A stretch of DNA of 64,000 nucleotides, taken from positions 181,529-245,528 of the forward strand of contig CAVRKE010000001.1 of NCBI GenBank assembly GCA_963722305.1. The letters are read 5' to 3'. Every line of letters starts with the position of its first letter. Position 1 is the first letter of the stretch. Shown here piece by piece: positions 9,692 through 64,000 of this stretch. The DNA is from Candidatus Levyibacteriota bacterium (GTDB lineage Bacteria; Patescibacteriota; Microgenomatia; Levybacterales; UBA12049). Below the pieces are notes generated by a model. The model was not told the DNA's origin and searched no databases. It saw only the letters and a list, made by a program, of their open reading frames with translations. The position numbers and the translations under genes are program-made.

Positions 9692-10735
9692 CTATTTTTT
9701 AAGTTCTTGTTTGAAGTAGTCGACCCAGGGGTTGACTGCCGGGTTTTGGCCATAAATGAGTCCAAGATAAAGAGTGAGATAGCTTCCAAAAACCATCACG
9801 TTTAGAAAATCTTCGTAAACATTTGCGCCGTTAGCCTCGTATTCAAAAACTTCGCGTTTATTCTGTTCGATAACTGTTTTTGTCAACACCATTCTTTTTT
9901 TAATCTTGTCCGAATAGTTAGCGGAGTTTAATAAAATAAAAATCAGGTTACTTTCGCTAGGGAATTGTAAGCCTTCCATCAAGTGGTGGTTTAAATCCGG
10001 TACGAGATAAAGCGCGGAAAACGTTTTGCTGGTTTCGTTAAACTGGTTTCTTAAAATCTGGGCATTGCCGGCCAAATGCTCGGCCGCAATCACAATCGGG
10101 ATTTTGTTTTCAAACTGTTTGACTGTGTCCAAGGCTTGTTTTTTAATGGTTGTTTTATTGTTGATGATATTTTCCAGCGCGGCTTTTAACTTCACTTCGT
10201 CAATATCAACGATTCCGGCTTTAAAAAGCAATCCTAATAATCCTAAGACCGAATAGCCATTGCCGAGTCTTGGTACTCCGGCCGGGTTTAACTTGGCATC
10301 AAAAATATAAGCAGGGATATTGTTTGTTTTGGCAAATTCGGCTAAGTCTCCGCCTTTAGTCAAGACTAACATCTTCGCGTTTTTTTCTTTAGCTTCTTTG
10401 GCGCACGATAGAACTTCTTCGGTTGTTCCGGAATAGCTAGTGAGAATAACTAATGTTTTCTCGTTAACATATTTTGGCAAATGGTAATCGCTGACCAGTT
10501 CAAACGGGTATTTCATTTCCGGGCCGACCAACGCACGCGTGACCAAAGCTCCGTAAATTGAAGCGCCCATGCCGCAGCAAACAATATTGGCAATTTGCTT
10601 ATAGTCGTTTGGGACATTTATAAGATTTACTTGCTTCCACGCTTCCTGACATTGTTTGGCTAAAAGTTCGGTTGAACCGAGGGTGTCACGGGGATCAAGC
10701 TTTTTAATCGCGTCAATATTGGTTAAATCAATCAT
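9692..10735 (-). CDS. bifunctional phosphoglucose/phosphomannose isomerase (archaeal-type SIS-domain PGI/PMI)
   Basis: 347 aa with two SIS-like halves (CCGMGASIYGA...SYSGTTEE) and a length typical of PGI/PMI. Confidence 0.65.
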   Translation of the reverse strand: MIDLTNIDAIKKLDPRDTLGSTELLAKQCQEAWKQVNLINVPNDYKQIANIVCCGMGASIYGALVTRALVGPEMKYPFELVSDYHLPKYVNEKTLVILTSYSGTTEEVLSCAKEAKEKNAKMLVLTKGGDLAEFAKTNNIPAYIFDAKLNPAGVPRLGNGYSVLGLLGLLFKAGIVDIDEVKLKAALENIINNKTTIKKQALDTVKQFENKIPIVIAAEHLAGNAQILRNQFNETSKTFSALYLVPDLNHHLMEGLQFPSESNLIFILLNSANYSDKIKKRMVLTKTVIEQNKREVFEYEANGANVYEDFLNVMVFGSYLTLYLGLIYGQNPAVNPWVDYFKQELKK

Positions 10736-50044: not shown

Positions 50045-53000
50045 ATGTCGAGGTACTTCGTTATGAGTAACAAATTTTTTTCAACCTTGAAATTTTTAAT
50101 CGGCTGGCCTTTGTCGATTATTGCCCTTCTATTTATTCTGAGAATTATTACTCCGAATATAAAAGTTGTTTTTGAAAATTTATCAAGAATCAATTTTGCA
50201 TATCTATGTTTTGCTTTATTGAGTTTTTTTACGTATTTTTTACTGCGCAGTTTTTTATGGAAGAGCATCGTTGACCGGAAAGGCAATAAACTAAACTTTA
50301 AAAAAATTTCTTACCTTTGGGCGTTTTCCGAATTAAAAAGGTATATTCCCGGAAATGTTTGGTCAATATTGGCCAGAGGGACGTCGTCTTTAGAAGCCGG
50401 CTTAGACAAAAAAGCGATTGCCAATGCATTAATTATTGAGGTTGAACTAATAATCATTGCCGGTTATATCCTTTCTCTTCCGTTTATGCTTTATTTCTCT
50501 TGGGGAACTGTTTTTAACATCCTTTTTTTGCTGCTTGGAATCATTCTAATTTTATTGTTTATTTTTGGCAGCATGATTAAGATCGGTAAGCTGTCTATTC
50601 TTTTTCCCGGAATCAATTACTCCGAAAATGCAAAAATATTCCTAATTTCACTGGTAACTTTTTTTATGTTTGGTCTCGGCACATTTTTTGCCATCGTTTC
50701 TTTATTCTACTTCGACCCGAATCTTATCTGGATTATTGTCAGTCTTTCCGTTTTCTCCCTTTTGGCCGGATACGTATCATTAATAACGCCGATGGGGCTG
50801 GGCGTTAGGGAAGGAGTAATGACTTTTTATCTTTCGCGGTTTATTCTAACATCCTCAGCCGGTCTGGTTTCAATTTTTTCCAGAATAGTACTAATTATTT
50901 CCGAAATTATTTTTTTGCTGTTCGTTTTTTGCTGGAATCAAATTAAAAACAAGCTTCTAACCAACATTGAAGATTTTATCTCAACACACAAGTACGCACT
51001 TTGTTTGGGATTATTTATTCTTGCTTATATCCTTTACTTTACTGCAGCCAGCTTTTTAAGATATGACAATTTTTTTACCGGACGGTTTGACCTTGGAAAC
51101 ATGGACCAAACTGTCTGGAATACAATTCACGGAAGAATTTTTCAAACAACAGACGCAAACGGTACTGCGATTATTTCAAGACTCGCTTATCACGCCGATT
51201 TTATTTTAATTCTTATCGCACCACTATACCTTATTTGGTCAAACCCGGGAATGCTACTGCTATTACAAACCGTCGTCTTGGGATTGGGCGCGGTGTTTAT
51301 TTATTTTATTGCCACTAATCTCTTGAAGAACAAAAATCTGGCTTTGGTTTTCTCCGCCATTTATCTTTTAAATCCGTCTCTACAGTTTACCAATCTTTAT
51401 GATTTTCATGCGGTAGTTTTGGGCACAACATTGCTACTTGGAACTTTTTATTTTTTTCTCAAAAAAAACTATCTATTTTTTATTTTGTTTGCCGTTTTAT
51501 CAGGATTAACTAAAGAAGATATTTGGGCAATAATTGCAATCTTCGGTTTGGCAATAATTACACGCGCAATCATAGAAAATAAATTAAGCATAAACTTATC
51601 TAAAAAACGATTGTTGGAAGTTCTGCTTGGACTAACTGTTTTTCTATTATCAAGTTTTATTTTTTACCTTTTAATCTGGATTATAATCCCTTATTTTAAC
51701 GGCGCACAACACTTTGCAATTTCTTATTTTTCAGATTACGGTGGTACCGCTTCCGATATTTCTAAAAATATCGTTTTTATGCCTCTAAAAACTCTCTCTC
51801 TATTATTCACTGTACAAAATATTCATTATCTCTTTCAATTGTTTTTGCCATTTGGATTTATTTCTCTTATTTCTCCGCTTTACTTGATTTTTGCCGTACC
51901 GGATTTACTGATTAATCTACTGGGCACAAATTTGGGATTTCACGAAATTTATTACCAATATACTGCCGCGATAACACCGTTTATCGCAATCTCTTCTATT
52001 TATGCTGCCTTTTTTTTGAAAAAACATTTTTCGCTAATCAACAATCGGATAATAATTACTTACCTTATTATTGCGGCTTTAATTTCTGTCTATCTTTATG
52101 GGCCGCTGCCGGGAACTTTGCATGCAAATGTAGACATGTTTAAAAAGCAACTGGTTAACAGTAAGATTATTGATAATTTTATTTCAACTATTCCAACCAG
52201 GTTTAGCATTGCGGCTACCAATAATTTGGGCTCTCATCTTTCCCGAAGACAAAAAATTTATACCATTCCTGTCGGCATTGACCAAGCCGACGTGGTGCTG
52301 TTTTTGCTAAACGACCCATTCGCCCAGCCATCGCTTCAGGCTCAAAAAAACATGGCTATGCAAATGAAGAATGATAAAAGATATATCCAGGTTTTTAAAG
52401 ACGGTGATTTCATTGCTTTCGAAAAAAGAACTCTTTACACCCAGGCCAATGCAAAGCCCAAAAAAGGACTGGTTAATCTTTTCCCGTATTCCATCACTGC
52501 TCTTTCCAACCGCAGCTACCAAAAAAGTGACATTACCGTTGAACGACAGGCCCATGGTGACGGAAATTTCCAGAGTTTTGTAATTTCTTTTATTTCCGAC
52601 GGCTTAAAAGAATATGCTTTAATGAATATACCGAATTCTCCAATGCCGGCAGGCGGATTTCCGGTGTTAATTCTTGACCACGGCTATATTCAGCCCAGTG
52701 CTTATGACACCGTCAATTCTTATAAATCCGAATCCGATTACTTTGCCAATCAAGGCTTTTTAGTTTTGAAGCCTGACTACAGAGGCAACGGTAATTCGGA
52801 AAACACCGACCAAGCCCTGATGCGTTTTGCTTATCCGATAGATGTCTTAAACTTATTGTCATCTGTCGCAAATATTTCAGCTGCCAATCCTAATCAAATT
52901 TTCTTCTGGAGTCATTCCATGGGTGGGGAAGTAACACTTGAGGTTTTGGAAGCCGCAGCCAAAAATAAAGATCTGGCTGGAAAAATAAAAGGCGCAATCT

Positions 53001-53380
53001 TTTGGGCACCGGTTACGGACCCGGTAAAATGGTTTTCGAAAAGCCATCTGCCGGCTCTCCCCGAAGCAATTATCACACCCTATCCTTATACGCAAACTTT
53101 TCAAATCTTAGGTACTCCAGACAAAAACCCGCAGCTTTGGCAATCACTTTCGCCCTTAAACTATCTAAATAGTATTAACGTTCCAATCCTTCTGCAACAC
53201 GGAACCGGGGATACAACCGTTCCTTATTCATGGTCGGTTGAGTTAAACCAAGATTTACTGACACTAAAGAAAACAATCACTTTTATCTCTTATCCTAACG
53301 ACACGCATAACCTACCGCTGTTTTGGTCTAAAGCGGTTAACGACGACTTAAATTTTTTAAATCACCTTTTAGGTAAATAA
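50045..53380 (+). CDS. 1111-aa fusion: flippase-like (UPF0104/LPG-synthase TM-like) membrane domain, DUF2079 membrane domain and a C-terminal alpha/beta-hydrolase (S9/esterase-like)
   Basis: The N-terminal ~300 aa are polytopic. The middle has the DUF2079 hallmark RYDNFFTGRFDLGNMDQTVWN. The C-terminus has the nucleophile elbow SHSMGG and the LLQHGTGDTTVP acid/His region. Confidence 0.55.
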   Translation: MSRYFVMSNKFFSTLKFLIGWPLSIIALLFILRIITPNIKVVFENLSRINFAYLCFALLSFFTYFLLRSFLWKSIVDRKGNKLNFKKISYLWAFSELKRYIPGNVWSILARGTSSLEAGLDKKAIANALIIEVELIIIAGYILSLPFMLYFSWGTVFNILFLLLGIILILLFIFGSMIKIGKLSILFPGINYSENAKIFLISLVTFFMFGLGTFFAIVSLFYFDPNLIWIIVSLSVFSLLAGYVSLITPMGLGVREGVMTFYLSRFILTSSAGLVSIFSRIVLIISEIIFLLFVFCWNQIKNKLLTNIEDFISTHKYALCLGLFILAYILYFTAASFLRYDNFFTGRFDLGNMDQTVWNTIHGRIFQTTDANGTAIISRLAYHADFILILIAPLYLIWSNPGMLLLLQTVVLGLGAVFIYFIATNLLKNKNLALVFSAIYLLNPSLQFTNLYDFHAVVLGTTLLLGTFYFFLKKNYLFFILFAVLSGLTKEDIWAIIAIFGLAIITRAIIENKLSINLSKKRLLEVLLGLTVFLLSSFIFYLLIWIIIPYFNGAQHFAISYFSDYGGTASDISKNIVFMPLKTLSLLFTVQNIHYLFQLFLPFGFISLISPLYLIFAVPDLLINLLGTNLGFHEIYYQYTAAITPFIAISSIYAAFFLKKHFSLINNRIIITYLIIAALISVYLYGPLPGTLHANVDMFKKQLVNSKIIDNFISTIPTRFSIAATNNLGSHLSRRQKIYTIPVGIDQADVVLFLLNDPFAQPSLQAQKNMAMQMKNDKRYIQVFKDGDFIAFEKRTLYTQANAKPKKGLVNLFPYSITALSNRSYQKSDITVERQAHGDGNFQSFVISFISDGLKEYALMNIPNSPMPAGGFPVLILDHGYIQPSAYDTVNSYKSESDYFANQGFLVLKPDYRGNGNSENTDQALMRFAYPIDVLNLLSSVANISAANPNQIFFWSHSMGGEVTLEVLEAAAKNKDLAGKIKGAIFWAPVTDPVKWFSKSHLPALPEAIITPYPYTQTFQILGTPDKNPQLWQSLSPLNYLNSINVPILLQHGTGDTTVPYSWSVELNQDLLTLKKTITFISYPNDTHNLPLFWSKAVNDDLNFLNHLLGK

Positions 53381-53427
53381 ACTGAACATTCATTGCAAAA
53401 ACCATTGTTAAGTTTTAACATTAAATT

Positions 53428-54234
53428 ATGGTTAACGTATTAAAGGCTAACGGCAGTGTCGAACCATTCAGCGAGGAAAAACTGCGGGATTCTATCGGGC
53501 GTGCCGGCATTCCGACTAGCGTCCAAGAACAAGTTGTTTCCCAGGTCAAAGCAAAAGTTTACGAAAATATTCCCACTTCCGAAGTTTATGAGCATGTCAC
53601 TAAATCTTTGGAAAGCGAACCTCACCTGACAAAATTTCGCTACTTTTTAAAGCGGGCGCTGATGGAACTTGGTCCAACCGGCTATCCATTTGAAGATTTA
53701 GTTGCCGAAATTTTGCAGTCAAAAAGCTATACTACACAAGTCCGCTCTACTCTGATGGGCAAATGTGTCAACCATGAAATTGACGTTATCGCCCAAAAAG
53801 AGACTGAAAAACTGCTGGTCGAAGCAAAATTTCATAACGCCCCGGGCATCCACACCGATTTACACGTTTCTTTATATACCAACGCCAGATTTGAGGACCT
53901 TCGGGAAAAACATGCGTTCACTAAAGCCTGGCTCTTTACCAATACAAAAATTACCCCGGACGCACTTTCCTATGCACTTTGCGTCGGCATGCAGGTGACC
54001 GGCTGGAACTACCCGCAAAACGAAGGACTCAGAGATTTAATTGGAAAGGAGAGACTCTATCCAATCACTATTTTGGCCTCGCTTTCCCAAAGCGAAAAGC
54101 AGACGCTTTTGGAAAACCACATTGTTTTGGTAAACCAAGTTTTGAAAAACGAACAGATGCTTGATGTCTTGGGAATTCCGCCCGATAAAAAAACAAAAAT
54201 AGCTGAAGAAGCTAAGCTAATTCTAAATGAATAA
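53428..54234 (+). CDS. ATP-cone domain fused to an Mrr-like (PD-(D/E)xK) restriction-endonuclease-fold domain
   Basis: N-terminal ATP-cone (VLKANGSVEPFSEEKLRDSI). Mrr_cat-like core FEDLVAEIL...GKCVNHEIDVIA...LLVEAKFH (D...E-x-K). Confidence 0.45.
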   Translation: MVNVLKANGSVEPFSEEKLRDSIGRAGIPTSVQEQVVSQVKAKVYENIPTSEVYEHVTKSLESEPHLTKFRYFLKRALMELGPTGYPFEDLVAEILQSKSYTTQVRSTLMGKCVNHEIDVIAQKETEKLLVEAKFHNAPGIHTDLHVSLYTNARFEDLREKHAFTKAWLFTNTKITPDALSYALCVGMQVTGWNYPQNEGLRDLIGKERLYPITILASLSQSEKQTLLENHIVLVNQVLKNEQMLDVLGIPPDKKTKIAEEAKLILNE

Positions 54235-54535
54235 AAAAATTATACTTGCCCTAATTATACCTCCACTCGTTGTACTTATTTGGAATATTATTTACTTTAG
54301 CCTACAAGATCAACCAGCTATAAATGGATATTTACCTTCGATTAGCAATCATGTAGGTTTAATAATCATAATACTTTCACTTTTGTTTGACTCTCTTGCA
54401 TGCTTAAATAGTAAAAATGCAGTTAGTAATTTCTTTAAATTAGCGTTCGCATCAATGGCTGGTTTTGTAATAACGATGTTTATTTTTTTATTTCTTTTGC
54501 TACTTTATTATCCTAAGGGACAAGCTCTTTTTTAA
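54227..54535 (+). CDS. hypothetical small membrane protein
   Basis: 102 aa with three hydrophobic helices and no motif. Confidence 0.25.
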   Translation: MNKKIILALIIPPLVVLIWNIIYFSLQDQPAINGYLPSISNHVGLIIIILSLLFDSLACLNSKNAVSNFFKLAFASMAGFVITMFIFLFLLLLYYPKGQALF

Positions 54536-55782
54536 GCAAATTTTGCAGTAGTTTCTTTGGCTAATTTTGACCGTTCGAATTTGTCCGCCATAAAACCGTT
54601 CGGGACAGTCTTGAGGCTTGGGGCATTGAGCAAAAATCCGTTTCTAATAGTGTGGTCGCCGAACTTTTCGTTAATTTTATCCCTGACTTTTTTAAGCTTC
54701 TCCTGTTTATCGTCTTGTTCAAATAAAGACATGGTCAGATTTTTATTATCGTTAAGATTTCCGACGGAAATCGAAATTTGCCTAACCATTGAATGCCAGT
54801 TCCACTCATCCATCAACTGCTTACAAAGTTTGAATATCTCTGCACCGCTGTCAAAGTATTCTTGAACAGTTTTCCTGCCGTGTCCCAACCTTTCCCCACC
54901 AAGATAGAGATGAACGGTTCTGCCTTTCTTGTTTAATCTTCTAAGCTTGATTGAGATTTCCTCACAAAGCTCATAAATGTTTTGCAAGATCAAACGTTGG
55001 TCGTAAGTATTGGCAGGTAAACAATAACTCCGGCCGACCGATTTTGTTTCAGAGAGAAAATAGTAGGGGATAACCGGTGAATCATCCTGTCCCTGACCGA
55101 GATTGTAAAGAAAGTGACCTTCAACGTCCTTAAATTCACGCATGAGAACGCTTAACGAGGCTTTATGCAGCTCCATCGGCGTATGAATTCTTAAATTGTT
55201 TAATCTATTTTCAATCCTTCTGCCGATACCGCAAAAATCCGTCAGTTTGGTTTTGGCGTAAATCTCTAAAATATTTTCCGGCGTTATCTCAAGTATTCCA
55301 TTGGGTTTATTGATGCCGGATCCCAATTTGGCTAAGAGCTTGTTATACGAAATCCCAACCGAGACAGTGATGTATTCGCCGATTTCGTTTTTAATACGCT
55401 CTCTTATTTTTTCTATTAATGAATATTTTCCGCCGAATAGTCCCTCAGTTACAGTAATATCCATAAACACTTCGTCCAAAGAAAATAATTCGACATACGG
55501 TGAATAATCTTTGCAAATATCCAAAAACTTTTGGGTAATTTCCCAATACTGCTCAAAATGCGCCGGCACAAAAATCATGTTGGGAACAATTTTTAAGGCA
55601 TCAAAAGTCCGGCTCGGGGATTTTACTCCCAAGCGCTTTGCTTCACGACTGGCGGCAATAACCGCTGTCCGGCCGTTTTGCGCGGTTACACCGATCGGTT
55701 TACCACGCAGTTTAGGATTGAATTGTTGCTCGCAGGAAGCAAAATATGAGTCAAAATCGATGTGAAGAATTACCTTTTTCAT
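54532..55782 (-). CDS. dinB: Y-family DNA polymerase IV
   Basis: IMPB/MucB/SamB N-terminus (VILHIDFDSYFASCEQ) with palm, fingers and little-finger layout. The start is taken at MKKVILHID. Confidence 0.85.
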   Translation of the reverse strand: MKKVILHIDFDSYFASCEQQFNPKLRGKPIGVTAQNGRTAVIAASREAKRLGVKSPSRTFDALKIVPNMIFVPAHFEQYWEITQKFLDICKDYSPYVELFSLDEVFMDITVTEGLFGGKYSLIEKIRERIKNEIGEYITVSVGISYNKLLAKLGSGINKPNGILEITPENILEIYAKTKLTDFCGIGRRIENRLNNLRIHTPMELHKASLSVLMREFKDVEGHFLYNLGQGQDDSPVIPYYFLSETKSVGRSYCLPANTYDQRLILQNIYELCEEISIKLRRLNKKGRTVHLYLGGERLGHGRKTVQEYFDSGAEIFKLCKQLMDEWNWHSMVRQISISVGNLNDNKNLTMSLFEQDDKQEKLKKVRDKINEKFGDHTIRNGFLLNAPSLKTVPNGFMADKFERSKLAKETTAKFA

Positions 55783-55861
55783 AGGCATTATCTCTAGAAT
55801 AGTAGAAAAATAGTCGTAAATCAATAGAACAAAATACGACAATCGATGTCAGTTTTACAGC

Positions 55862-56809
55862 CTATAGTCCATAATAGGCCAAAGAAGTATTACCAACGCG
55901 GGTACGATGCAAAGTCATAATAAAACTGTCACACTGCCATTGACCGGGAATTTCGGTAAATGCCCCCAGGTAACCTTTTCGTTGCAAAGTTTGAATGGCG
56001 TTGCTATTAAATGAACCGTAAGGGTAGGTAAAAATGTTCACCGTTTGTCCTGTGTATTGTTGGATTTGGTTTTGCGCCGTAACGATTTCGCTTTCTATTT
56101 TAGCCTGAGAGCCATTCGTGATTGGCCAGTGGGACCAGGTATGGTTAGTGAGATAAACTCCGTTATTCTTTAGATCATTGACCTGCCCCCAGGTAAGCAT
56201 GTCGGAATTTGCGCCGACCAAACCCGAAGCCAGCATTAAATTTGCCTTAAAACCATACTTTTTTAATATGGGCAAGGCGTAAATATCATTATCGGCATAT
56301 CCGTCATCCATGGTAATTACAATCGGTTTTCCCGGCAGTCCCGAATGAGTAAGCAGTGCATTAACTAATTCGTTCGCCCAAACCGGAGTATAGCCGTGGG
56401 AAACCAGGTAGGCCATTTGCTGGTCAAAAATTCCGTTGTCCACCGTTAATGATGTCTGACCTAAGCTTTTAGCCGCTGCTTCCGGCTGGATATGGTGATA
56501 CATTAAAACCGGCACATGCAAGCAATAACCGACTAAAGGAGCAGGGGTTGGAGTATTGGTAATTGTCTGGTAAGGCGTAATCAAATTGACATTTTTTATC
56601 GCATCTTTTTTTAAGGAAACGTCCGCAGGCAATTGATAAGTTACTTCCTCGCTGTTGCCTTTTCCCCAAAAAAAATATCCCAAACAAATCAGAAGCAAAA
56701 CTCCAATTAGGAATATCAATGTCAAAAGTCCGCTGGGTTGTTGCTTAACATGCCGTTTTTTGATCACTTTTGACCGGCGACTTACTGTTTTACGCTTAAC
56801 TTTTACCAT
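55862..56809 (-). CDS. polysaccharide deacetylase (NodB homology domain), membrane-anchored
   Basis: N-terminal TM helix followed by the NodB motifs ITMDDGY and YGFKANL. Confidence 0.7.
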   Translation of the reverse strand: MVKVKRKTVSRRSKVIKKRHVKQQPSGLLTLIFLIGVLLLICLGYFFWGKGNSEEVTYQLPADVSLKKDAIKNVNLITPYQTITNTPTPAPLVGYCLHVPVLMYHHIQPEAAAKSLGQTSLTVDNGIFDQQMAYLVSHGYTPVWANELVNALLTHSGLPGKPIVITMDDGYADNDIYALPILKKYGFKANLMLASGLVGANSDMLTWGQVNDLKNNGVYLTNHTWSHWPITNGSQAKIESEIVTAQNQIQQYTGQTVNIFTYPYGSFNSNAIQTLQRKGYLGAFTEIPGQWQCDSFIMTLHRTRVGNTSLAYYGL

Positions 56810-56893
56810 TTTTTAAGTATACCATTAAAAATAAATTTAATGCAATTGTGCTATAATTCATAAACAGCTTCCAAAACAGGGCTGTTTTTTATT

Positions 56894-58723
56894 ATGGACC
56901 AATTCACGTCCGAAAAAATCAGGAACATTGCGGTAATTGCCCATGTTGATCATGGCAAAACTACTTTAGTTGATTTTATGCTCAAACAATCGCACACCTT
57001 TCGGGAAAATGAAGCCGAAATGCAACAAACTACTATTTTGGACTCCAATCCTCTGGAGCGGGAAAGAGGCATCACCATTTTGGCCAAAAATACCGCCATT
57101 TATTATAAAAATTATAAAATCAATATTATTGATACTCCGGGACACGCCGATTTCTCCGGTGAGGTGGAAAGAACCTTAAACATGGCCGACGGTGCACTCT
57201 TAATAATTGACGCCCAGGAAGGACCGATGCCGCAAACCAAATTTGTTTTAAAAAAAGCCTTGGAACTGGGACTGAAAATAATTGTCGTCATTAATAAAAT
57301 CGACAAACAACTGGCTAACGTCAAAACCACTCTTGAAAGGACAAACGACTTATTTTTAGAATTGGCAACGCATCATGAGCAACTGGAATTTCCTATTTTT
57401 TATGCTATCGGCAGAGAGGGGAAAGCGGCTCTCTCACTGGAAGAATTACAGCAAAGCCAAAATCTGGAACCGATTCTAAACTCCATCATTGAATTTATCC
57501 CGGCACCCAAAGTGGAGAAGGGAAGTTTTCAAATGCTGGTTTCCAATCTTGACTACGACGTCCATAAAGGCAAACATGCCATTGGCAGAATCAGAAGGGG
57601 CAATATTAAAAAAGGGCAGAACTTAATTTTAATTGACGCTTTCGGTAAAAAAATTGCGGGTAAAGCGGAAAGTATCCGTTTAAGCCACGGGTTAAAAAAG
57701 ATTGAAGTTGATGAGGCTTTTGCCGGAGACATTGTTGACATCACCGGTTTACCAAACGTTGCCATTGGCGACACCATTACGGACTCACAAAGTCCTGAAC
57801 CACTGCCAAGGATAATGCTTGAAGAACCAACTATTAAAATTGCCATCTCGGCCAACACCTCACCCTTTGCCGGTAGGGAAGGAAGATTTACCAACTCTCG
57901 GCAAATACTGGAAAGACTGACACATGAATTGGAAACAAACATCAGTTTGAAACTGGCCAAAGAAGGAGAAAAAATGGTTGTCTCGGGCAGAGGCGAGCTG
58001 CATTTATCAATTCTGATTGAAACTTTAAGGCGCGAAGGATACGAATTTCAGGTTGAAAAACCGGAAGTGATTACAAAGTCCGTAGATGGAGTCGTAATGG
58101 AACCGGTGGAAATTGCCATGATTGATGTTTCCGATCAGTTTTTGGGGATAATTACCGCCGAAATGGGCGCCAGAAAGGGAAAAATGCTTAACATGCAATC
58201 CGACGGCAAAGGCAATACCCGGTTTGAATTTAAGATTCCTTCCAAAAATTTGTTTGGCATCAGAAACGATTTACTAACCAACACCAAAGGTACGGCCATC
58301 GTCAATACTATTTTTTTCGATTACGAACCGATGAGCCCAACCATTCCGCAAATTAGGAACGGTGTTTTAATCGCTTCGGAGGCGGGTTCGGCATTAAAAT
58401 ATGGCTTGAACAACGCCCAAGGCCGGGGAATTACTTTTATTGAGCCGGGAACCATGGTTTACGAAGGGATGATTGTCGGCGAAAATACCCGGCAGGACGA
58501 CATTGAAATTAACGTCACCAAAGAAAAAAAACAAACCAATATGCGCGCCTCAACGTCAGATGTCACGCTTGGCGCTTTAACTCCGGCCACTGTTTTGAGC
58601 CTTGAGGAATGTATCGACTTTCTGGAAGATGATGAATTACTGGAAGTGACACCCAAAAGTTTAAGGCTGCGCAAAAAATTGTTAACCCATCTTGATCGAG
58701 TAAGGAAAACGCGAAGTTTATAA
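56894..58723 (+). CDS. typA: translational GTPase TypA/BipA
   Basis: 609 aa with G-domain motifs AHVDHGKTT and DTPGHADF, an EF-G-like domain layout and a BipA C-terminus. Confidence 0.95.
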   Translation: MDQFTSEKIRNIAVIAHVDHGKTTLVDFMLKQSHTFRENEAEMQQTTILDSNPLERERGITILAKNTAIYYKNYKINIIDTPGHADFSGEVERTLNMADGALLIIDAQEGPMPQTKFVLKKALELGLKIIVVINKIDKQLANVKTTLERTNDLFLELATHHEQLEFPIFYAIGREGKAALSLEELQQSQNLEPILNSIIEFIPAPKVEKGSFQMLVSNLDYDVHKGKHAIGRIRRGNIKKGQNLILIDAFGKKIAGKAESIRLSHGLKKIEVDEAFAGDIVDITGLPNVAIGDTITDSQSPEPLPRIMLEEPTIKIAISANTSPFAGREGRFTNSRQILERLTHELETNISLKLAKEGEKMVVSGRGELHLSILIETLRREGYEFQVEKPEVITKSVDGVVMEPVEIAMIDVSDQFLGIITAEMGARKGKMLNMQSDGKGNTRFEFKIPSKNLFGIRNDLLTNTKGTAIVNTIFFDYEPMSPTIPQIRNGVLIASEAGSALKYGLNNAQGRGITFIEPGTMVYEGMIVGENTRQDDIEINVTKEKKQTNMRASTSDVTLGALTPATVLSLEECIDFLEDDELLEVTPKSLRLRKKLLTHLDRVRKTRSL

Positions 58724-59395
58724 TCCCTTGAGAATTTCCCGAAGGCTTGTTAAATCCGGTATTACAAACTTTGCTCCGGCAGCAATTAATTTTTTCTTTG
58801 ACAGCGACCCGATTCTGATAATATTTACCACACTACATTCATTTGTAATTCTGATATCTTCAGGGGTATCTCCTACAAACACTAGCTCTTGAAGAAACGT
58901 TTTATAATTTACCCCAAAGTGCCCTGCCGCTGTTTTAAAATGCGTAGGACCTTTTTTAAATTCCGGCTGACCGGGACGTATACCCATAAATAGATCCAGG
59001 TATTTAATTAGGCCCGTTCTTTCTAAATCGTTTTTAACTACTGTTTCTTGGTGATTGGAGGAAACAAATATTAAATATCCTTGTTCTTTTAATTGTTTTA
59101 TAACCCCCAATACTTCCGGAAATAATTCTCCCTTAATCGCCTTGCCTAAGCGGCTGGCGATTTCATTTCCTTTCTTAAATAACTCTGCTTTTGAAAAAGA
59201 AATATTATGTCGCTTAAGCGTCAAGGCAGGTTGCAAATAAGTTGGTTGGCCCGGAGCGACTACGGCAAAAATTTTCCTCGCTTCGTTTGCATCAATGCCG
59301 AAATCTTCGTGAATAATTTTTCCCCACCATCTTCTTTTGGCCGGTTCGACATCAAATAATGTTCCATCTTTATCAAAACCAATATACTTAATCAT
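58718..59395 (-). CDS. HAD-superfamily hydrolase
   Basis: Motif I FDKDGTLFD near the N-terminus and a C-terminal GD motif (FVGDTPEDI). Confidence 0.55.
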   Translation of the reverse strand: MIKYIGFDKDGTLFDVEPAKRRWWGKIIHEDFGIDANEARKIFAVVAPGQPTYLQPALTLKRHNISFSKAELFKKGNEIASRLGKAIKGELFPEVLGVIKQLKEQGYLIFVSSNHQETVVKNDLERTGLIKYLDLFMGIRPGQPEFKKGPTHFKTAAGHFGVNYKTFLQELVFVGDTPEDIRITNECSVVNIIRIGSLSKKKLIAAGAKFVIPDLTSLREILKGL

Positions 59396-59473
59396 CGCGA
59401 TAATGATACCAAACAATTTACTTATTGCCAATCTCGCCTTGCTGTATAACGTCGACTTGTTTATAATTAAATC

Positions 59474-60292
59474 ATGACCGCTTACATCTTCGATATTGAC
59501 GGAGTAATCACCGACCCGCAGAAAAGAACAATTACACGGCCAGAATTAGTCTTACGCATTATTAAAATTCTTCAAGACCAAAGTCCGATCGCGTTTATAA
59601 GCGGGAGAGCTCTGTCTTGGCTTAAAGAACGGGTAGTGAACGAATTTTATGAATATATCAAAAATAATAATTTAGACACCGGCATTCTTGACAATGTTTT
59701 TATTTCCGGTGAGTTTGGTGGAAGCTCACTTATTTTTGACCACGGACAGGAAAAACAAACGGTTAATCCCGATATACACTTGAGCGAAGAGCTTATACAA
59801 CAATTAACGGAAGCTAGCAAAAATTATTTGGATATAGTTTTTATTGATAAACATAAACAAACACAGTTCACTGTTGAAATGCAACCGAATTTAACCGTAG
59901 ATGAATTCGTGAAAAAAGAACGAGAAATTGCTGACATTTATAGAGACCTTGTCAAAAGATTAAGCCTCGAAAATTTAATTGAAGTACATGAAGACAGAAT
60001 CGCCATCAATGTTAAATATAAAACTTCCAACAAAATGTTTGCTACCAAAGAGTTTTTAAATTTGCTTAACAAAAGAGACATTAATCCGGATAGCTTTAAA
60101 GTTTTTGGAGATAGCGCATCGGATCTTGAGATTTGCGAGCAGTTAAAACAAACCAAATCAAAATTCGATTTGATTTATGTGGGAAATCCCAACGATATAA
60201 AAAATAAAACAGATTTTCCGATTATTTTTACACTGGAAAAATTTAGCAAAGAAACCGACGAGGGAACGTTAGAGTATTTAAAAGCCGAGTAA
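59474..60292 (+). CDS. HAD-IIB-like hydrolase
   Basis: Motif I IFDIDGVITD and a C-terminal FGDSASD. Confidence 0.5.
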   Translation: MTAYIFDIDGVITDPQKRTITRPELVLRIIKILQDQSPIAFISGRALSWLKERVVNEFYEYIKNNNLDTGILDNVFISGEFGGSSLIFDHGQEKQTVNPDIHLSEELIQQLTEASKNYLDIVFIDKHKQTQFTVEMQPNLTVDEFVKKEREIADIYRDLVKRLSLENLIEVHEDRIAINVKYKTSNKMFATKEFLNLLNKRDINPDSFKVFGDSASDLEICEQLKQTKSKFDLIYVGNPNDIKNKTDFPIIFTLEKFSKETDEGTLEYLKAE

Positions 60293-60406
60293 AAGTGCTA
60301 CAATAGCTCCTGCCCGCCAGGCAATTGCTCCATGAGCCGTATTCGAATCGAGTCTGACTCGACGAATAGAATTGAAAAGGCAAATGGCAGAATGCGGCGG
60401 GACGCA

Positions 60407-61609
60407 ATGAATTTGGCATTTCGTTTAAGGCCGCAAAATTTTTCGGAGTTTGTCGGACAAGAACACTTGGCCGGAGAACAGGCTATTCTTCGCCGGATTA
60501 TTCAGTCACAAACTCCGTTTTCCTTGATTCTTTGGGGGCCGCCGGGCAGTGGCAAGACTACTCTGGCCTACATTATTGCCAATGAACTGAATGCCGATTT
60601 TCACGCCATGTCGGCAGTCGAAGCCGGTAAAGCAGACCTGCATAAAATAATTGAGCAAGCAAAAGAAAATTTGCAGAAAGATATCCGAACCATTCTATTT
60701 ATTGACGAAATCCACCGCTGGAACAAAGCCCAGCAAGACGCGCTTTTACCTTATGTGGAAAACGGCACTTTGAATTTAATCGGAGCCACCACCGAAAACC
60801 CCTCATTTGAAGTGATTTCCGCACTTTTATCGCGTTCGAAAGTGTTGATTTTGAAGAGCTTAAGTTTTGAGCAGCTGGAAATAATTTTAGATAGGGCATT
60901 AAAAGACAAAACCAACGGTTTGGGAAAGTTAAAAAAGACACTTGATAAGGATGCCAGAGAACTCTTAATTAGACTTTCCGGCGGAGATGCCAGAATTATG
61001 CTTAATGCCTTGGAAATTGCCGCCAATACTTTTAAAACCCAAAAAATTACCACTGAAATTGTTAAGGAAGTTTTTCAAACCAAGTCAGCCGGGCTTTACG
61101 ATAAGAAAGCCGACGAACATTACAACATTATTTCCGCTTTTATCAAATCGATGCGGGGCAGTGACGTTGACGCCGCGCTTTATTACATGATGCGGATGTT
61201 GGAAAACGGCGAAGACCCCAAATTTATTGCCAGAAGAATGATAATTTTTGCCGCCGAAGATATTGGCATGGCAGATAGGGGAGCCCTAATTCAGGCCGAT
61301 GAAGCTTTCGAGGCGGTCAATAAAGTCGGCATGCCGGAAGCGCAATTGATTTTAACTTATGTTGTCATTTATCTTGCCAAAGCGCCAAAGTCACGGGCAG
61401 TGCCAAATGCCATGGCTAAAGCCAGGGAAGCAGTTTATGAATTTCCTAATGAAGCGGTCCCGTTGCACCTTCGCAATGCACCGACAAAATTGATGAAGAA
61501 AATTGGTTATGCTCGTGATTATTCGTGGGGCGAAAAATACGTCGGTCCAAAATCCAATCTGCCATTCTTACCAAAAAAGCTTGCCGGCCGCAAATTCTAC
61601 GATAAATAA
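60407..61609 (+). CDS. rarA: replication-associated recombination protein A (AAA+ ATPase)
   Basis: Walker A WGPPGSGKTTLA and the MgsA/RarA C-terminal helical domains. The start is taken at MNLAFRLRPQNF. Confidence 0.85.
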   Translation: MNLAFRLRPQNFSEFVGQEHLAGEQAILRRIIQSQTPFSLILWGPPGSGKTTLAYIIANELNADFHAMSAVEAGKADLHKIIEQAKENLQKDIRTILFIDEIHRWNKAQQDALLPYVENGTLNLIGATTENPSFEVISALLSRSKVLILKSLSFEQLEIILDRALKDKTNGLGKLKKTLDKDARELLIRLSGGDARIMLNALEIAANTFKTQKITTEIVKEVFQTKSAGLYDKKADEHYNIISAFIKSMRGSDVDAALYYMMRMLENGEDPKFIARRMIIFAAEDIGMADRGALIQADEAFEAVNKVGMPEAQLILTYVVIYLAKAPKSRAVPNAMAKAREAVYEFPNEAVPLHLRNAPTKLMKKIGYARDYSWGEKYVGPKSNLPFLPKKLAGRKFYDK

Positions 61610-61624
61610 ACCATCATTTTCTTC

Positions 61625-62020
61625 TTGAAAAGCAAAAAAATGTGGAGTAATATGAATAACATGGATGATACAAAATTGTTGGGAAAAATTGGCATATTAA
61701 TTGACGAAAAGCTTCTACCCCTTAAGAAACAACTTGATACTGTAGAAACAAAAGTGGGGGCTCTAGATGAAAAAGTGGGGGCTCTAGATGAAAAAGTGGG
61801 GGCTCTAGATGAAAAAGTGGGGGCTCTAGATGAAAAAGTGGGGGCTCTAGATGAAAAAGTTGAGTCATTGGATAGAAAAATTGAAATTGTAAACAACAAA
61901 ATTGATAAAGCGCAAGAAGAAACGATTGATACCCTTTCCGAACTAATTGCATCCGGATATAATAACCATGAACGAAGAATTAAAAGAATAGAAAATCACT
62001 TAGAACTTCCCCAAATTTAA
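61625..62020 (+). CDS. small coiled-coil protein containing a perfect heptad (VGALDEK) tandem repeat
   Basis: 131 aa with heptad periodicity throughout (LDTVETK, VGALDEK x5, VESLDRK, IEIVNNK). Confidence 0.4.
   Translation: MKSKKMWSNMNNMDDTKLLGKIGILIDEKLLPLKKQLDTVETKVGALDEKVGALDEKVGALDEKVGALDEKVGALDEKVESLDRKIEIVNNKIDKAQEETIDTLSELIASGYNNHERRIKRIENHLELPQI
61751..61876 (+). repeat. 21-bp tandem repeat (AAAGTGGGGGCTCTAGATGAA): 5 perfect copies plus 1 degenerate, in-frame within a coding region
   Basis: Read directly. Each unit carries an XbaI-like TCTAGA. Confidence 0.9.
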
Positions 62021-62093
62021 TAAGTAAAATTAGCGGGCCGTAAATTTTACGAAAAATAGGCTATAATTCCATGTCATGTTAAAATGAACTATT

Positions 62094-62432
62094 TTATCCA
62101 AGAATTCGTCCATGTAACCGAAGGCCTAATAATGCTCTTAATTCTACTGCTCTTAAAACTTTTGCTCCTAGTAATGTTCTGTATGCTACTCTTGCTGCCA
62201 GCGGATTGTTTATCGCTAATATAGCAAATGCTTCCGTAACTCCCGTTAGTTCGTGCTGTGGCGCATTAAGTATTTCAACTGCTAATTTTACAGACTCTCT
62301 TTGTACTTCTCTTCTCTGTCCTAAATCCTGTAAGCGTTCTGCTTTGGACATCATTCGTAACATATCATAAAAATTACCCTCCGCAATTGGATCATGATGT
62401 TCGGCTTTTATCCAACGTTCATTTCTGTACAT
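62094..62432 (-). CDS. hypothetical protein (GC-richer, Arg/Leu-rich)
   Basis: 112-aa ORF with composition atypical for this genome and no firm motif. Confidence 0.25.
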   Translation of the reverse strand: MYRNERWIKAEHHDPIAEGNFYDMLRMMSKAERLQDLGQRREVQRESVKLAVEILNAPQHELTGVTEAFAILAINNPLAARVAYRTLLGAKVLRAVELRALLGLRLHGRILG

Positions 62433-62568
62433 ATGGGTTGTATTATATATCCTTGAGGCAAGTTTTGTGGGTATTTTGGGTAGTTTAGCACACGATGTCA
62501 GGAGTTACTATAGCTCGCTCCAACTTCAGGAATTAGTATTTTACAGAACGGCGTTTGCGACTTTATAG

Positions 62569-63072
62569 TTACTCAGAAATCGCATTTACATAATTAACAC
62601 ATTTTTTCATTATTGGAAGAACATTTAATGCGTCATATTTCTTCTTTCCAGCAAACCACATATGTGGATTTTCTGTAACTGGAAACTTTTCTATTCTTTT
62701 AACTTCTTCCTTAAGAATATTTACAGATGTTACATCCAATGTCATGCCCTTCGTTAATTCATAAATATTTATATGCATATAGGGATTGCGAATGTTTTCA
62801 TTAAATTCAATAATATCTTCTTTCTGCGTTTTAGTTATAACCTTAGATTTTTCAAGTGCCCCAGCGAGAGGTCTGATTAGTAGTCCGGCAATGGGCTCCC
62901 ATTTTGCGTTTGGATCTGTTTTTTTACGCTCCTTATATACCCTTATTCTCATTGCATATTCTAAAAGCAGGATCGAGTGCATTATCGCGGATGAAAATAT
63001 TCCAAGCGTTAAACTATCTCTCATTTCTTCGTAAATTGACTGAAGTATAGCGCTACCTAAATCGTCCCTCAT
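62569..63072 (-). CDS. hypothetical protein with a HEPN-like R-x4-H motif
   Basis: 167 aa. IRNPYMH fits the HEPN Rx4-6H RNase motif inside a predicted all-helical protein. It lies downstream of an ImmA/IrrE-like gene. Confidence 0.3.
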   Translation of the reverse strand: MRDDLGSAILQSIYEEMRDSLTLGIFSSAIMHSILLLEYAMRIRVYKERKKTDPNAKWEPIAGLLIRPLAGALEKSKVITKTQKEDIIEFNENIRNPYMHINIYELTKGMTLDVTSVNILKEEVKRIEKFPVTENPHMWFAGKKKYDALNVLPIMKKCVNYVNAISE

Positions 63073-63086
63073 TTTTGGGATTGGTG

Positions 63087-63281
63087 TTACAGTTGAAGCG
63101 CGACTGCTCTTTTCCTTTTAAACAAATCCTCAATATATTCTTCATAGGTAATAAATCTTTCCTTTACCTTTTCTCCTTTATCATTCATTGTCTTAATCAT
63201 ATTTGGGTTTGCAACTATTACAGTCGCAATTTTTGTGGCTTCCGCAAGGTCTTTTTTAAATTTTATCGATTTGTTGTTCAT
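63087..63281 (-). CDS. hypothetical small protein
   Basis: 64-aa charged ORF between the ImmA-like gene and the HEPN-like gene. Confidence 0.2.
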   Translation of the reverse strand: MNNKSIKFKKDLAEATKIATVIVANPNMIKTMNDKGEKVKERFITYEEYIEDLFKRKRAVALQL

Positions 63282-63314
63282 TTTACTATTGAACGAGCCT
63301 CACAACTTTATAAA

Positions 63315-64000
63315 TTATCGCGAATACTTTTCATAAAATCTGAGCGTTTTAAGCCTTATATCCATTGCCTGCTCGCTCACTTGATATAGTTCTACAAGTT
63401 TTTGAATATTCAACCCAATCGTTGATAAATCTCTCTTTAAAAAATCTGCGGGCATTAATAATTCCGCAGAAAAAGCATCTGCCTCTCTTTCTTGTTGAAA
63501 GTGATGATTATAATATCTTGACTCGTCTTCAATGAATAGATTGTCTTCGTGTTGGTGTCCGTTAACAAAATGTCCAAATTCGTGTCCAATAGTATAACGC
63601 TGCAAGGCTAATGGATGATTTCTCATTGATACCAATTGCTCTTACTCCGGCTTCTATAAACACCATGCCTTTACGCTTATCTGGGAAGGGATAAGGGATT
63701 ATTGTAAAACCTAATAGTTTCGCGATTTTATTTAAGTCTACCGGGGCTTGCTTTATGGCTGTTGCTTTAAGGAGACTTTGAGCTTTTTCCCTGGTTCTGA
63801 AGCTGACATTTTCATTTGTCTTTTTGTTCTTTAGCAAGGTTGCGGGCAAGTGTTATAAAATCATTTGCAACTTTATCAGCTGCTTCTTTTTCTTTTGGAG
63901 TAATATCTTTTGCGTCTCTGCTCTGAACAAAGTAAGGCACATTTTTCGTTTCCGAATTTAGAAATTCCGTGATAGGCACACTAAAAAAAGCTGCAATAAC
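63315..64000 (-). pseudogene. XRE-linker plus ImmA/IrrE (DUF955) zinc-metallopeptidase gene disrupted by at least two frameshifts, continuing past the window edge
   Basis: Three consecutive minus-strand frames carry an XRE-type linker (...ITPKEKEAADKVANDFITLARNLAKEQKDK*), the ImmA N-part (VDLNKIAKLLGFTIIPYPFPDKRKGMVFIE) and the ImmA C-part with HExxH (YTIGHEFGHFVNGH). The frames overlap at 63562-63635 and around 63840. Confidence 0.55.

Follow-up and report, generated by a model that had tools for sequence, protein, structure and literature searches.

An XRE/ImmA switch and a HEPN-type cargo gene at the putative end of an integrative element, with frame breaks that are more probably consensus errors

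Introduction

The last stretch (62094-64000) of the window, i.e., of the whole 64,000 nucleotides analyzed here, carries on its minus strand a zinc peptidase gene with an interrupted reading frame, followed by several small ORFs. The question raised by this locus is whether these are the remains of a decayed toxin-antitoxin (TA) or abortive-infection module, as a preliminary description had proposed, or genes of another kind whose frames have been broken in some other way. The reading preferred here, to which a probability of about 0.6 is given, is that positions 62481-64000 form the end of an inserted element carrying an XRE/ImmA switch and a HEPN cargo gene, the indels within them being more probably consensus errors.

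Boundary of the Inserted Element

Two contigs from other assemblies, namely the element-free sister contig L001 and the element contig L015, delimit the region.

62480..62482, no strand: junction between core DNA and inserted element (the L001 match stops at 62481, the L015 match at 62480)
62094..62432, minus strand: 112-aa ORF, a core-genome gene with no assigned function (339/339 identical in the element-free L001)

L001 is 95% identical to the window up to the junction, beyond which it has a tRNA and further genes (a CTP_transf_like gene is seen in this contig), and L015 is 98.3% identical to the window from 64000 down to the junction. The tRNA, found at 9877-9948 on the minus strand of L001 (Rfam, 44.2 bits), is His by anticodon; the gene is intact in L001, and the junction lies approximately 3 nt inside its 3' end. 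The GC content is 35.4% in the element vs. 40.1% in the core, for 40.0% over the whole window. L015 is an independent assembly of the same element, whose length is at least 10.5 kb, and it serves as a stand-in for the window's own copy beyond position 64000. Farther along, this contig encodes DUF3892 together with fragments of a C5 methylase and of a large serine recombinase, the latter with Recombinase and Zn_ribbon_recom domains.

For an element of the large-serine-recombinase type, the features on record are the empty site in L001, the junction at 62481 and the recombinase fragments of L015, with one element end covered. The junction bears no tRNA-derived direct repeat, as would suit a serine recombinase. 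Judging from these sequence comparisons, the best explanation is that 62481-64000 corresponds to the terminal 1.5 kb of a putative integrative element that would rely on a large serine recombinase, measures at least 10.5 kb and is inserted at the extreme 3' end of the tRNA gene, in a small genome of low GC content that probably belongs to a Patescibacteria/CPR bacterium. The element is polymorphic between near-identical genomes, being present in the window and absent from L001, which suggests recent mobility. The broad setting proposed earlier, that of mobile elements and phage immunity, is right. Scans for promoters, terminators and inverted repeats around the junction gave nothing above chance, and an exact 40-mer from the window end had no match in genome_contigs or metagenome_contigs. 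An exact-product look-up of the 400-aa RarA form likewise returned no record.

The 112-aa ORF had been counted as a GC-rich member of the module. It lies outside the element, and its GC content is 38.9%, as compared with 40.0% for the window. Its homologues fall into three clusters at approximately 70% identity, it has no Pfam match, and L001 was the only return of an exact-product look-up.

The Repressor and Peptidase Genes

The two genes nearest to the window edge are the following.

63812..64000, minus strand: last 62 codons of a gene for an XRE-family repressor (90% identity with the C-terminal half of its 114-aa HTH_3/HTH_31 counterpart in locus L016)
63315..63815, minus strand: stand-alone ImmA/IrrE-type M78 zinc peptidase gene (PF06114), 166 codons once repaired

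The XRE gene ends with a TGA at 63812-63814 and runs off the window, its HTH domain lying beyond the edge; its length is approximately 114 aa by the L016 counterpart, and relatives have approximately 111-121 aa. It directly adjoins the co-oriented peptidase gene in both the window and L016, and in both its TGA overlaps the ATG of the peptidase gene in an ATGA arrangement. Instead of the XRE-ImmA fusion described earlier, two coupled genes are present, and all 49 ImmA homologues are stand-alone proteins with PF06114 (160-174 aa in 44 of them). The peptidase had also been seen as spread over three frames by two frameshifts: its frame is indeed broken twice, by one-base indels, but the third-frame piece at 63812-64000 is the separate XRE gene. 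An alternative genetic code was considered and rejected, as stop codons abound in the same frame past the TGA at 63812.

The identification of a minus-strand ImmA/IrrE zinc peptidase with a HEFGH motif is confirmed, the C-terminal fragment matching PF06114 with 53.7 bits for a cut-off of 22. The window copy retains HEFGH and the conserved Glu downstream of it: H78, E79, H82, and E109, invariant in the ImmA alignment (A2), are all present. The best 12 matches have 68-85% identity and span 98-100% of the peptidase sequence as repaired. Among viral contigs of IMG/VR, no close relatives of the peptidase were found, with just two matches at approximately 30% identity.

Regarding the surroundings of the pair, the order DUF3892 or DUF2188 (minus strand), XRE, ImmA recurs in L015-L020, L027-L030, L034, L036, and L037. 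A divergent DUF3892 gene stands opposite XRE-ImmA in L015, which carries the same element, and in relatives, with DUF2188 in its place in others; the DUF3892 gene of the present element is located just outside the window and is seen in L015 only. The same arrangement, i.e., HTH and PF06114 genes opposite DUF3892 or DUF2188, has been described for CapH/CapP-like regulators (Lau et al., bioRxiv 10.1101/2022.04.27.489752), where the ImmR/ImmA mechanism is also summarized. To judge from gene order and similarity, the XRE and ImmA genes are a translationally coupled pair, predicted to act as a switch of the ImmR/ImmA or CapH/CapP type.

The best PADLOC match of the peptidase is capP (8.9e-19), restricted to profile positions 66-152 of 242. 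Unlike CapP proper, which has a C-terminal GAF domain (bioRxiv 10.1101/2022.04.27.489752), the 166-aa protein lacks this domain, so that its sensing mechanism need not match that of CapP. As in ImmR/ImmA from ICEBs1 of B. subtilis and phage phi105, a small XRE gene precedes a stand-alone HExxH peptidase of approximately 165-170 aa without a GAF domain, on an integrative element and beside the attachment site. In contrast to these systems, where a tyrosine integrase is found in the same operon, the candidate recombinase here, of the large serine type, is located at the other end of the element, a HEPN gene follows immA, and the host is Patescibacteria-like.

The HEPN Gene

On the same strand, 33 nt downstream of ImmA, a further gene can be found.

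62569..63281, minus strand: 237-codon gene, with an N-terminal helical domain of approximately 70 aa and a HEPN domain, split into ORFs of 64 and 167 aa

HEPN domains are recognized by an Rx4-6H motif located where helix 3 ends, the R being followed by a polar residue, and by a conserved acidic residue in helix 2, typically within Ex3[KR] (PMC3710099). With residues numbered as in the modeled homologue P0001, both features are present. In R165-N166-P-Y-M-H170, the R and the H do not vary among 60 sequences and the N shows at least 90% conservation, and E108-R112 (E-Y-A-M-R) provides the Ex3R motif, R112 being invariant among close homologues. E108, R165, and H170 are the sole invariant residues across the 60 relatives (alignment A4, down to approximately 20% identity). 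The high-confidence model of P0001 has a four-helix up-and-down fold, and its top structural matches are HEPN folds. On this model and these alignments, the assignment of the C-terminal domain of the 237-aa protein as HEPN with a complete predicted RNase site holds up.

The RNPYMH (Rx4H) motif reported earlier in the 167-aa ORF is thus present, and the guess of a HEPN protein is backed by the fold, by the invariance of residues in Ex3R and Rx4H and by distant members, which match Pfam HEPN models weakly. As to the search with HEPN/Abi profiles that had been proposed, only these distant members respond: PF18736 (pEK499_p136) matches 4 of the 60 distant relatives, with a best E-value of 3.9e-5, but has no match to P0001 or to the fragments from the window. 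No match in Pfam, PADLOC or PHROG was obtained for the window protein or its close relatives, and PADLOC run over the family gave nothing besides one stray mad1 match. Likewise, nothing meaningful was obtained with the family profile against PDB sequences, no significant match in the BFVD viral structures, no family member in IMG/VR viral contigs and no record by exact-product look-up of the 167-aa ORF. The family comprises approximately 117 clusters at 50% identity, and its close members are from Patescibacteria.

Origin of the Frame Breaks

Three one-base indels interrupt the ImmA and HEPN genes.

63794..63798, minus strand: ImmA indel 1, a one-base deletion with an adjacent A>C difference (L015 intact here)
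63618..63621, minus strand: ImmA indel 2, one extra base in AATGAGAAATCATCC (homologues encode I-N-E-x-H-P)
63090..63091, minus strand: one-base deletion in the HEPN gene (window CAACT-GTAACA; L015 CAACTCGTAACA, i.e., QLVTP, intact)

At the first site the window reads TCA-GAACCAGG and L015 reads TCAGGAAACAGG, where the homologues encode MKMSASGNREKAQ. The two ImmA indels are -1 and +1, leaving the first 7 and last approximately 100 codons in one frame and approximately 58 codons between them out of frame. Frameshifts had been announced at 63630 and 63840; two do exist, at 63618-63621 and near 63798 and not at 63840. At 63090/63091 the HEPN homologues encode ...ALQLVTPMPKMRDD..., and the ORFs of 64 and 167 aa, previously taken as separate, are halves of a single gene parted by the one-base deletion. 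The gene models given here are based on homologues of full length.

Errors of the consensus, in a strain-variable and insufficiently polished part of a long-read assembly, are a more probable origin of the three indels than true pseudogenization. Assembly error is the likelier cause because two of the three frameshifts are absent from the independent copy L015, which has the homologue-consensus state at 63798 and 63091, with different indels of its own. L001 and L015 are both indel-rich "contig_N" assemblies from a common ENA accession series. The earlier idea of decay, according to which the indels would be real and the ImmA and HEPN genes pseudogenes in the remnant of a decaying, domesticated element, retains a substantial though lesser probability. 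Ends of mobile elements commonly decay, and all three indels occur in 1.5 kb of element DNA vs. none detected in the 62.5-kb core, which is 93% coding, with a mean ORF of 321 aa and no split genes. Candidate split genes in the core (ORF pairs at 2.1-3.0, 10.7-13.3, 34.1-37.2, and 37.1-38.6 kb) were rejected, each pair consisting of different genes. A core devoid of split genes implies a generally clean assembly, so that three indels in 1.5 kb are a sharp local excess, which decay can also explain. In addition, the extra base near 63620 could be real, since it is common to the window and L015, the latter being scrambled at that spot. Against decay, beyond the intact state of L015 at two sites and the visible errors of the sister assemblies, it can be held that the window copies are, apart from the indels, 85-90% identical to intact homologues without nonsense changes, that the ratio of indels to substitutions relative to L015 is far above the expectation for neutral decay, and that recent mobility is suggested by the absence of the element from L001.

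Programmed frameshifting, by which ribosomal slippage in A-runs would yield full-length ImmA and HEPN proteins, had also been suggested and is hardly credible. One of the sites is indeed located in a short A run; however, no slippery heptamer is present at the sites, two of the shifts are missing in L015, and the aligned full-length homologues of both families are single uninterrupted proteins, none of which requires a frameshift.

Association of the Peptidase and HEPN Genes

A dedicated TA or abortive-infection module, made up of XRE-ImmA, the HEPN protein and the small ORFs and with the HEPN toxin under the control of the protease or repressor, is a distinctly unlikely explanation of the locus. 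It would agree with the co-directionality of the genes and their short spacing, with the prediction of Xre-COG2856 pairs as TA-like modules (PMC2701414) and with the need of HEPN toxins, in the normal case, for a controlling partner (PMC3710099). However, apart from L015, this HEPN family is missing from all 84 other loci that were retrieved for ImmA, and tblastn found no ImmA in any of the 13 HEPN loci L002-L014. The gene conserved as the partner of XRE-ImmA is the divergent one (DUF3892 or DUF2188); the ORF of 64 aa, a supposed partner, belongs to the HEPN gene, and the one of 112 aa to core DNA.

The genes downstream of ImmA differ among relatives and, as the two families do not co-occur elsewhere either, the HEPN gene is regarded as cargo. 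On these locus comparisons, the pairing of ImmA with the HEPN gene is not conserved and is apparently an accident of cargo. The 216-aa proteins encoded upstream of HEPN in L010 and upstream of DUF3892 in L016 were tried as a link between the two contexts and rejected, being mutually unrelated.

Proposed Mechanism and Closest Known Effectors

In the mechanism proposed for the element, the XRE repressor would keep the divergent promoter region silent until the peptidase, in response to infection or DNA damage, cuts the repressor. The HEPN gene would be co-transcribed with the switch, as exchangeable cargo rather than as an obligate partner of it, and its product may be a stand-alone, metal-independent endoribonuclease with a role, like that of HepS or AbiV-like proteins, in abortive infection or in maintaining the element. 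A more specific version, in which the 237-aa protein would belong to an undescribed two-domain HEPN family and be a HepS-like RNase made only upon repressor cleavage in a CapH/CapP-like operon, i.e., a single-gene abortive-infection RNase of CPR mobile elements under a damage-responsive switch, is speculative and, taken as a whole, rather unlikely.

A repressor/protease switch on a mobile element is textbook material. Few defense functions of Patescibacteria have been experimentally tested, and their mobile elements have received little study; the cargo gene establishes, within these elements, a HEPN family that lacks annotation and has a complete predicted RNase site. If the protein is active, the stand-alone HEPN effectors would gain a further member, which could be taken up in studies of CPR-phage conflict. 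The locus is also a cautionary example, as three apparent pseudogenes and two "small ORFs" vanish once homologues and a second assembly are compared.

With regard to known effectors, the nearest named family is pEK499_p136 (PF18736), and the HEPN fold, the Ex3R of helix 2 and the R-N-x3-H at the end of helix 3 are shared with the superfamily. Unlike the named HEPN families, the window protein has the additional N-terminal helical domain and a beta-hairpin after the RNPYMH motif. HepS from prophage Gifsy-1, a single-protein, prophage-encoded HEPN anticodon nuclease (PMC13043305), and AbiV are functional analogues in that the protein stands alone and the family is found on mobile elements and in defense islands. 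In contrast to the MNT-HEPN (HepT/MntA) type II/VII TA systems, no nucleotidyltransferase is encoded beside the window HEPN gene, which is flanked by ImmA on one side and by the element end on the other. Within the family, an NTP_transf_2 gene can be found upstream of HEPN in 1 of about 8 distinct contexts (L014).

The XRE and ImmA Genes

The genes discussed below, as they stand once repaired, and the positions at which they are interrupted are as follows.

63812-64000, minus strand: C-terminal part of the XRE repressor gene
63815-63315, minus strand: ImmA gene, with its ATG at 63815-63813 and its end at 63315; 166 aa once repaired
near 63798, minus strand: one-base deletion in the ImmA gene
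63618-63621, minus strand: one extra base in the ImmA gene
62569-63281, minus strand: HEPN gene of 237 codons, in which the 64-aa and 167-aa ORFs are joined

Reading of the frames between 63300 and 64000 gave protein-like pieces in three frames of the minus strand. With a score of 53.7 bits (cut-off 22) of its HEFGH-containing piece against Pfam Peptidase_M78 (PF06114) and a match to the PADLOC capP model at 8.9e-19, the disrupted ImmA/IrrE peptidase of the preliminary description is real. The repaired product (MKMSAS...INENHPLALQRYTIGHEFGH...EKYSR, 166 aa) retrieved 49 homologues from 5.8 billion proteins, 49/49 with PF06114 and mostly stand-alone (160-174 aa), the closest sharing 68-85% identity across 98-100% of the query. 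The third frame, formerly assigned to the peptidase as part of an XRE-ImmA fusion, belongs to a separate gene: it shares 90% identity with the C-terminal half of a 114-aa HTH_3/HTH_31 protein whose gene immediately precedes that of the closest ImmA homologue (contig L016), and its stop codon TGA overlaps the ImmA ATG (ATGA), an identical arrangement being found in L016. The HTH itself lies beyond the window edge. On this sequence basis, XRE and ImmA are two translationally coupled genes.

One frameshift had been placed at 63840; the true site is near 63798, with TCA-GAACCAGG in the window against codons for SASGNREK in homologues. The other, placed at 63630, was close to the site found at 63618-63621, where the window reads AATGAGAAATCATCC and homologues encode INExHP.

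The HEPN Gene and Its Family

Homologues of the 167-aa ORF (28) are mostly 232-241 aa long and 64-90% identical to it, and the 64-aa ORF corresponds to the first 70 residues of these proteins. At 63090/63091 one base is absent from the window, which reads CAA CTG TAA where relatives have QLVTP; the two ORFs, previously regarded as separate proteins, therefore form a single split gene. The Met that starts the 167-aa ORF (63070-63072, PKMRDD) marks the boundary of the N-terminal and HEPN domains and is kept in most close relatives aligned; the HEPN domain alone could still be expressed from it.

When 1.84 billion cluster representatives were searched with a profile, 117 relatives were recovered; 60 of them were aligned, their identity to the first sequence falling to about 20%. 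Across these 60, E108, R165, and H170 are the only invariant positions (numbering of the close homologue P0001), N166 being conserved at ≥90%, and the resulting motifs are E-x3-R (E108 to R112) and R-N-x3-H. Two hallmarks are listed for catalytically competent HEPN domains (PMC3710099), and the family has both: an Rx4-6H motif that closes helix 3, its R followed by a polar residue, and an Ex3[KR] motif in helix 2. Pfam PF18736 (HEPN pEK499_p136) matches 4/60 members, all distant (best E-value 3.9e-5), and PHROGs phrog_1305 matches 13/60. No match was obtained for the window fragments in Pfam or PADLOC, nor for P0001 in Pfam, PADLOC, or PHROGs. Hence the earlier HEPN guess is borne out at the superfamily level by the invariant residues and the weak PF18736 matches of distant members: the 237-aa protein has the HEPN fold and catalytic residues, together with ~70 N-terminal residues that form a helical domain and a beta-hairpin directly following the catalytic motif. 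RNase activity is predicted. The family is small and unannotated; the superfamily to which it belongs is very large and well known. Broken copies recur in public assemblies; P0203 (161 aa, on a 70.7-kb contig of a different ENA assembly) has a frameshifted C-terminus.

Insertion Site and Mobile Element

Looking up the neighboring RarA protein led to contig L001 (ENA ERZ25039473), which matches the window at 95% identity over 52679-62481 and diverges afterwards. The 112-aa ORF (window 62094-62432, L001 9492-9830) is identical at 339/339 positions in this element-free contig and is a core gene outside the module in which it had been included. Nor is it GC-rich, as had been stated: its GC content is 38.9%, and that of the window 40.0%. 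It matched no family, and its homologues fall into only three clusters. Differences between the window and L001 are very unevenly spread: this stretch has none, whereas overall identity is only 95% and there are 54 gap openings. The tandem repeat at 61750-61860 (in ORF 61625-62020, plus strand) is perfect, with a 21-bp unit in 5.3 copies, the same number as in L001; it codes for the VGALDEK heptads of a 131-aa coiled-coil protein.

Immediately past the breakpoint, L001 carries a tRNA (9877-9948, minus strand; Rfam 44.2 bits, full-length model) with the anticodon GTG (His) read by eye; it was not detected by ARAGORN. Unrelated housekeeping genes follow. The last ~3 nt of this tRNA gene are retained in the window (62479-62481), after which the element starts, and no tRNA-His was found across the whole 64-kb window. 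The insertion point thus lies ~3 nt inside the 3' end of the gene.

An independent contig of the same element, L015 (ENA ERZ25039480, 10,575 bp), was reached through a 93-aa protein sharing 99% identity with the C-terminus of ImmA; the contig is 98.3% identical to the window from 64000 down to 62480 and stops exactly there. Outward from the window end, it contains the remainder of the XRE gene, a DUF3892 gene in divergent orientation, C5 DNA-methylase fragments, a further HTH gene, and fragments of a large serine recombinase with Recombinase and Zn_ribbon_recom domains. The GC content is 35.4% in the element part of the window, 35.1% in L015, and 40.1% in the core. Considering the L001 breakpoint, the match and content of L015, and the GC contrast, 62481-64000 appears to be the terminal part of an integrative element, at least 10.5 kb long and seen at one junction. 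There is no tRNA-derived direct repeat at this junction, which is more in keeping with a serine recombinase than with a tyrosine integrase. Beside the methylase fragments, a gene of ~280 codons lies in three fragments (L015 5957-6794 and 7238-8027), and the two may form a restriction-modification pair.

Origin of the Frameshifts

Programmed slippage in A-runs, as initially proposed, is rejected since aligned full-length homologues are uninterrupted and the sites are not slippery. We estimate at about 60% the probability that the three indels are assembly or polishing errors. At 63798 and 63091, L015, assembled independently, has the homologue-consensus state; it has different indels of its own elsewhere in this 1.5-kb stretch, at four or five positions for which the window keeps the homologue state. 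Indels aside, the element genes of the window are free of nonsense changes, and their identity to intact relatives is 85-90%. L001 and L015 belong to the same ENA accession series, bear names of the form 'contig_N', and are indel-rich; in L001, TypA is in three pieces and 54 gap openings occur in 6.7 kb. The element, present in the window's genome and absent from L001, is polymorphic among near-identical genomes, which speaks for recent mobility; it also means that coverage at the site is likely to be low or mixed.

Real decay is somewhat less probable, the intact sites in L015 and the lack of nonsense changes speaking against it. In its favor, the 62.5-kb core of the window is clean (93% coding, mean ORF 321 aa), each suspicious ORF pair there being two different genes, and three indels within 1.5 kb are a sharp local excess; moreover, the extra base near 63620 is common to the window and L015, although the latter is scrambled over the adjacent 30 nt. 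Error nevertheless remains our preferred reading.

Gene Neighborhoods and Proposed Function

The conserved order around the ImmA subfamily starts with DUF3892 or DUF2188, divergently oriented, and continues with XRE and ImmA. DUF2188 (E-values 4e-25 to 9e-17) replaces DUF3892 in some relatives (L027 721-963, L034 562-801, and L036 1237-1482, minus strand). The genes 3' of ImmA are variable or oppositely directed (a 297-aa unknown, Eco57I-type methylase, C5 methylase, core genes). This layout of HTH, metallopeptidase, and DUF3892/DUF2188 has already been described for CapH/CapP-like regulators (bioRxiv 10.1101/2022.04.27.489752). Unlike CapP, the window peptidase is ImmA-sized and has no GAF domain. 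Among switches of the ImmR/ImmA or CapH/CapP class, that formed by XRE and ImmA is an ordinary one, and the value of the locus lies mainly in the corrected gene models and the unannotated HEPN family.

Gene order, XRE-ImmA coupling, the divergent DUF3892 in the element and its relatives, and the mobile-element context are established. By analogy with CapH/CapP and with ImmR/ImmA and DdrO/IrrE, in which the repressor is cleaved on DNA damage (summarized in bioRxiv 10.1101/2022.04.27.489752), the XRE protein would repress the shared promoter region and, once DNA damage or infection occurs, would be cleaved by the peptidase. Co-transcription of the HEPN gene with the switch is probable, as the gene lies on the same strand, 33 nt from ImmA, with no promoter-like site in this spacer. 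Its product may be a metal-independent endoribonuclease acting alone in abortive infection or element maintenance, as suggested by other HEPN proteins (PMC3710099) and HepS (PMC13043305).

The ImmA-HEPN adjacency, previously seen as a recurrent pairing, is fortuitous: 13 further loci with HEPN-family genes, representing about 8 distinct contexts, encode no ImmA relative, and the HEPN-family HMM had no match in 84 other ImmA-relative loci, L015 being set aside as the same element. Elsewhere, the neighbors of HEPN-family genes include a serine recombinase and rve integrase, SLFN_AlbA_2 and GmrSD_N with a methylase, NTP_transf_2 in one case, and ordinary housekeeping genes in another. The settings with NTP_transf_2, SLFN_AlbA_2, and GmrSD_N (L014 7065-7880, L012 6684-7988, L010 3592-7154) are defence-island-like; in one lineage the NTP_transf_2 (MNT-like) gene lies 120 nt upstream of the HEPN-family gene.
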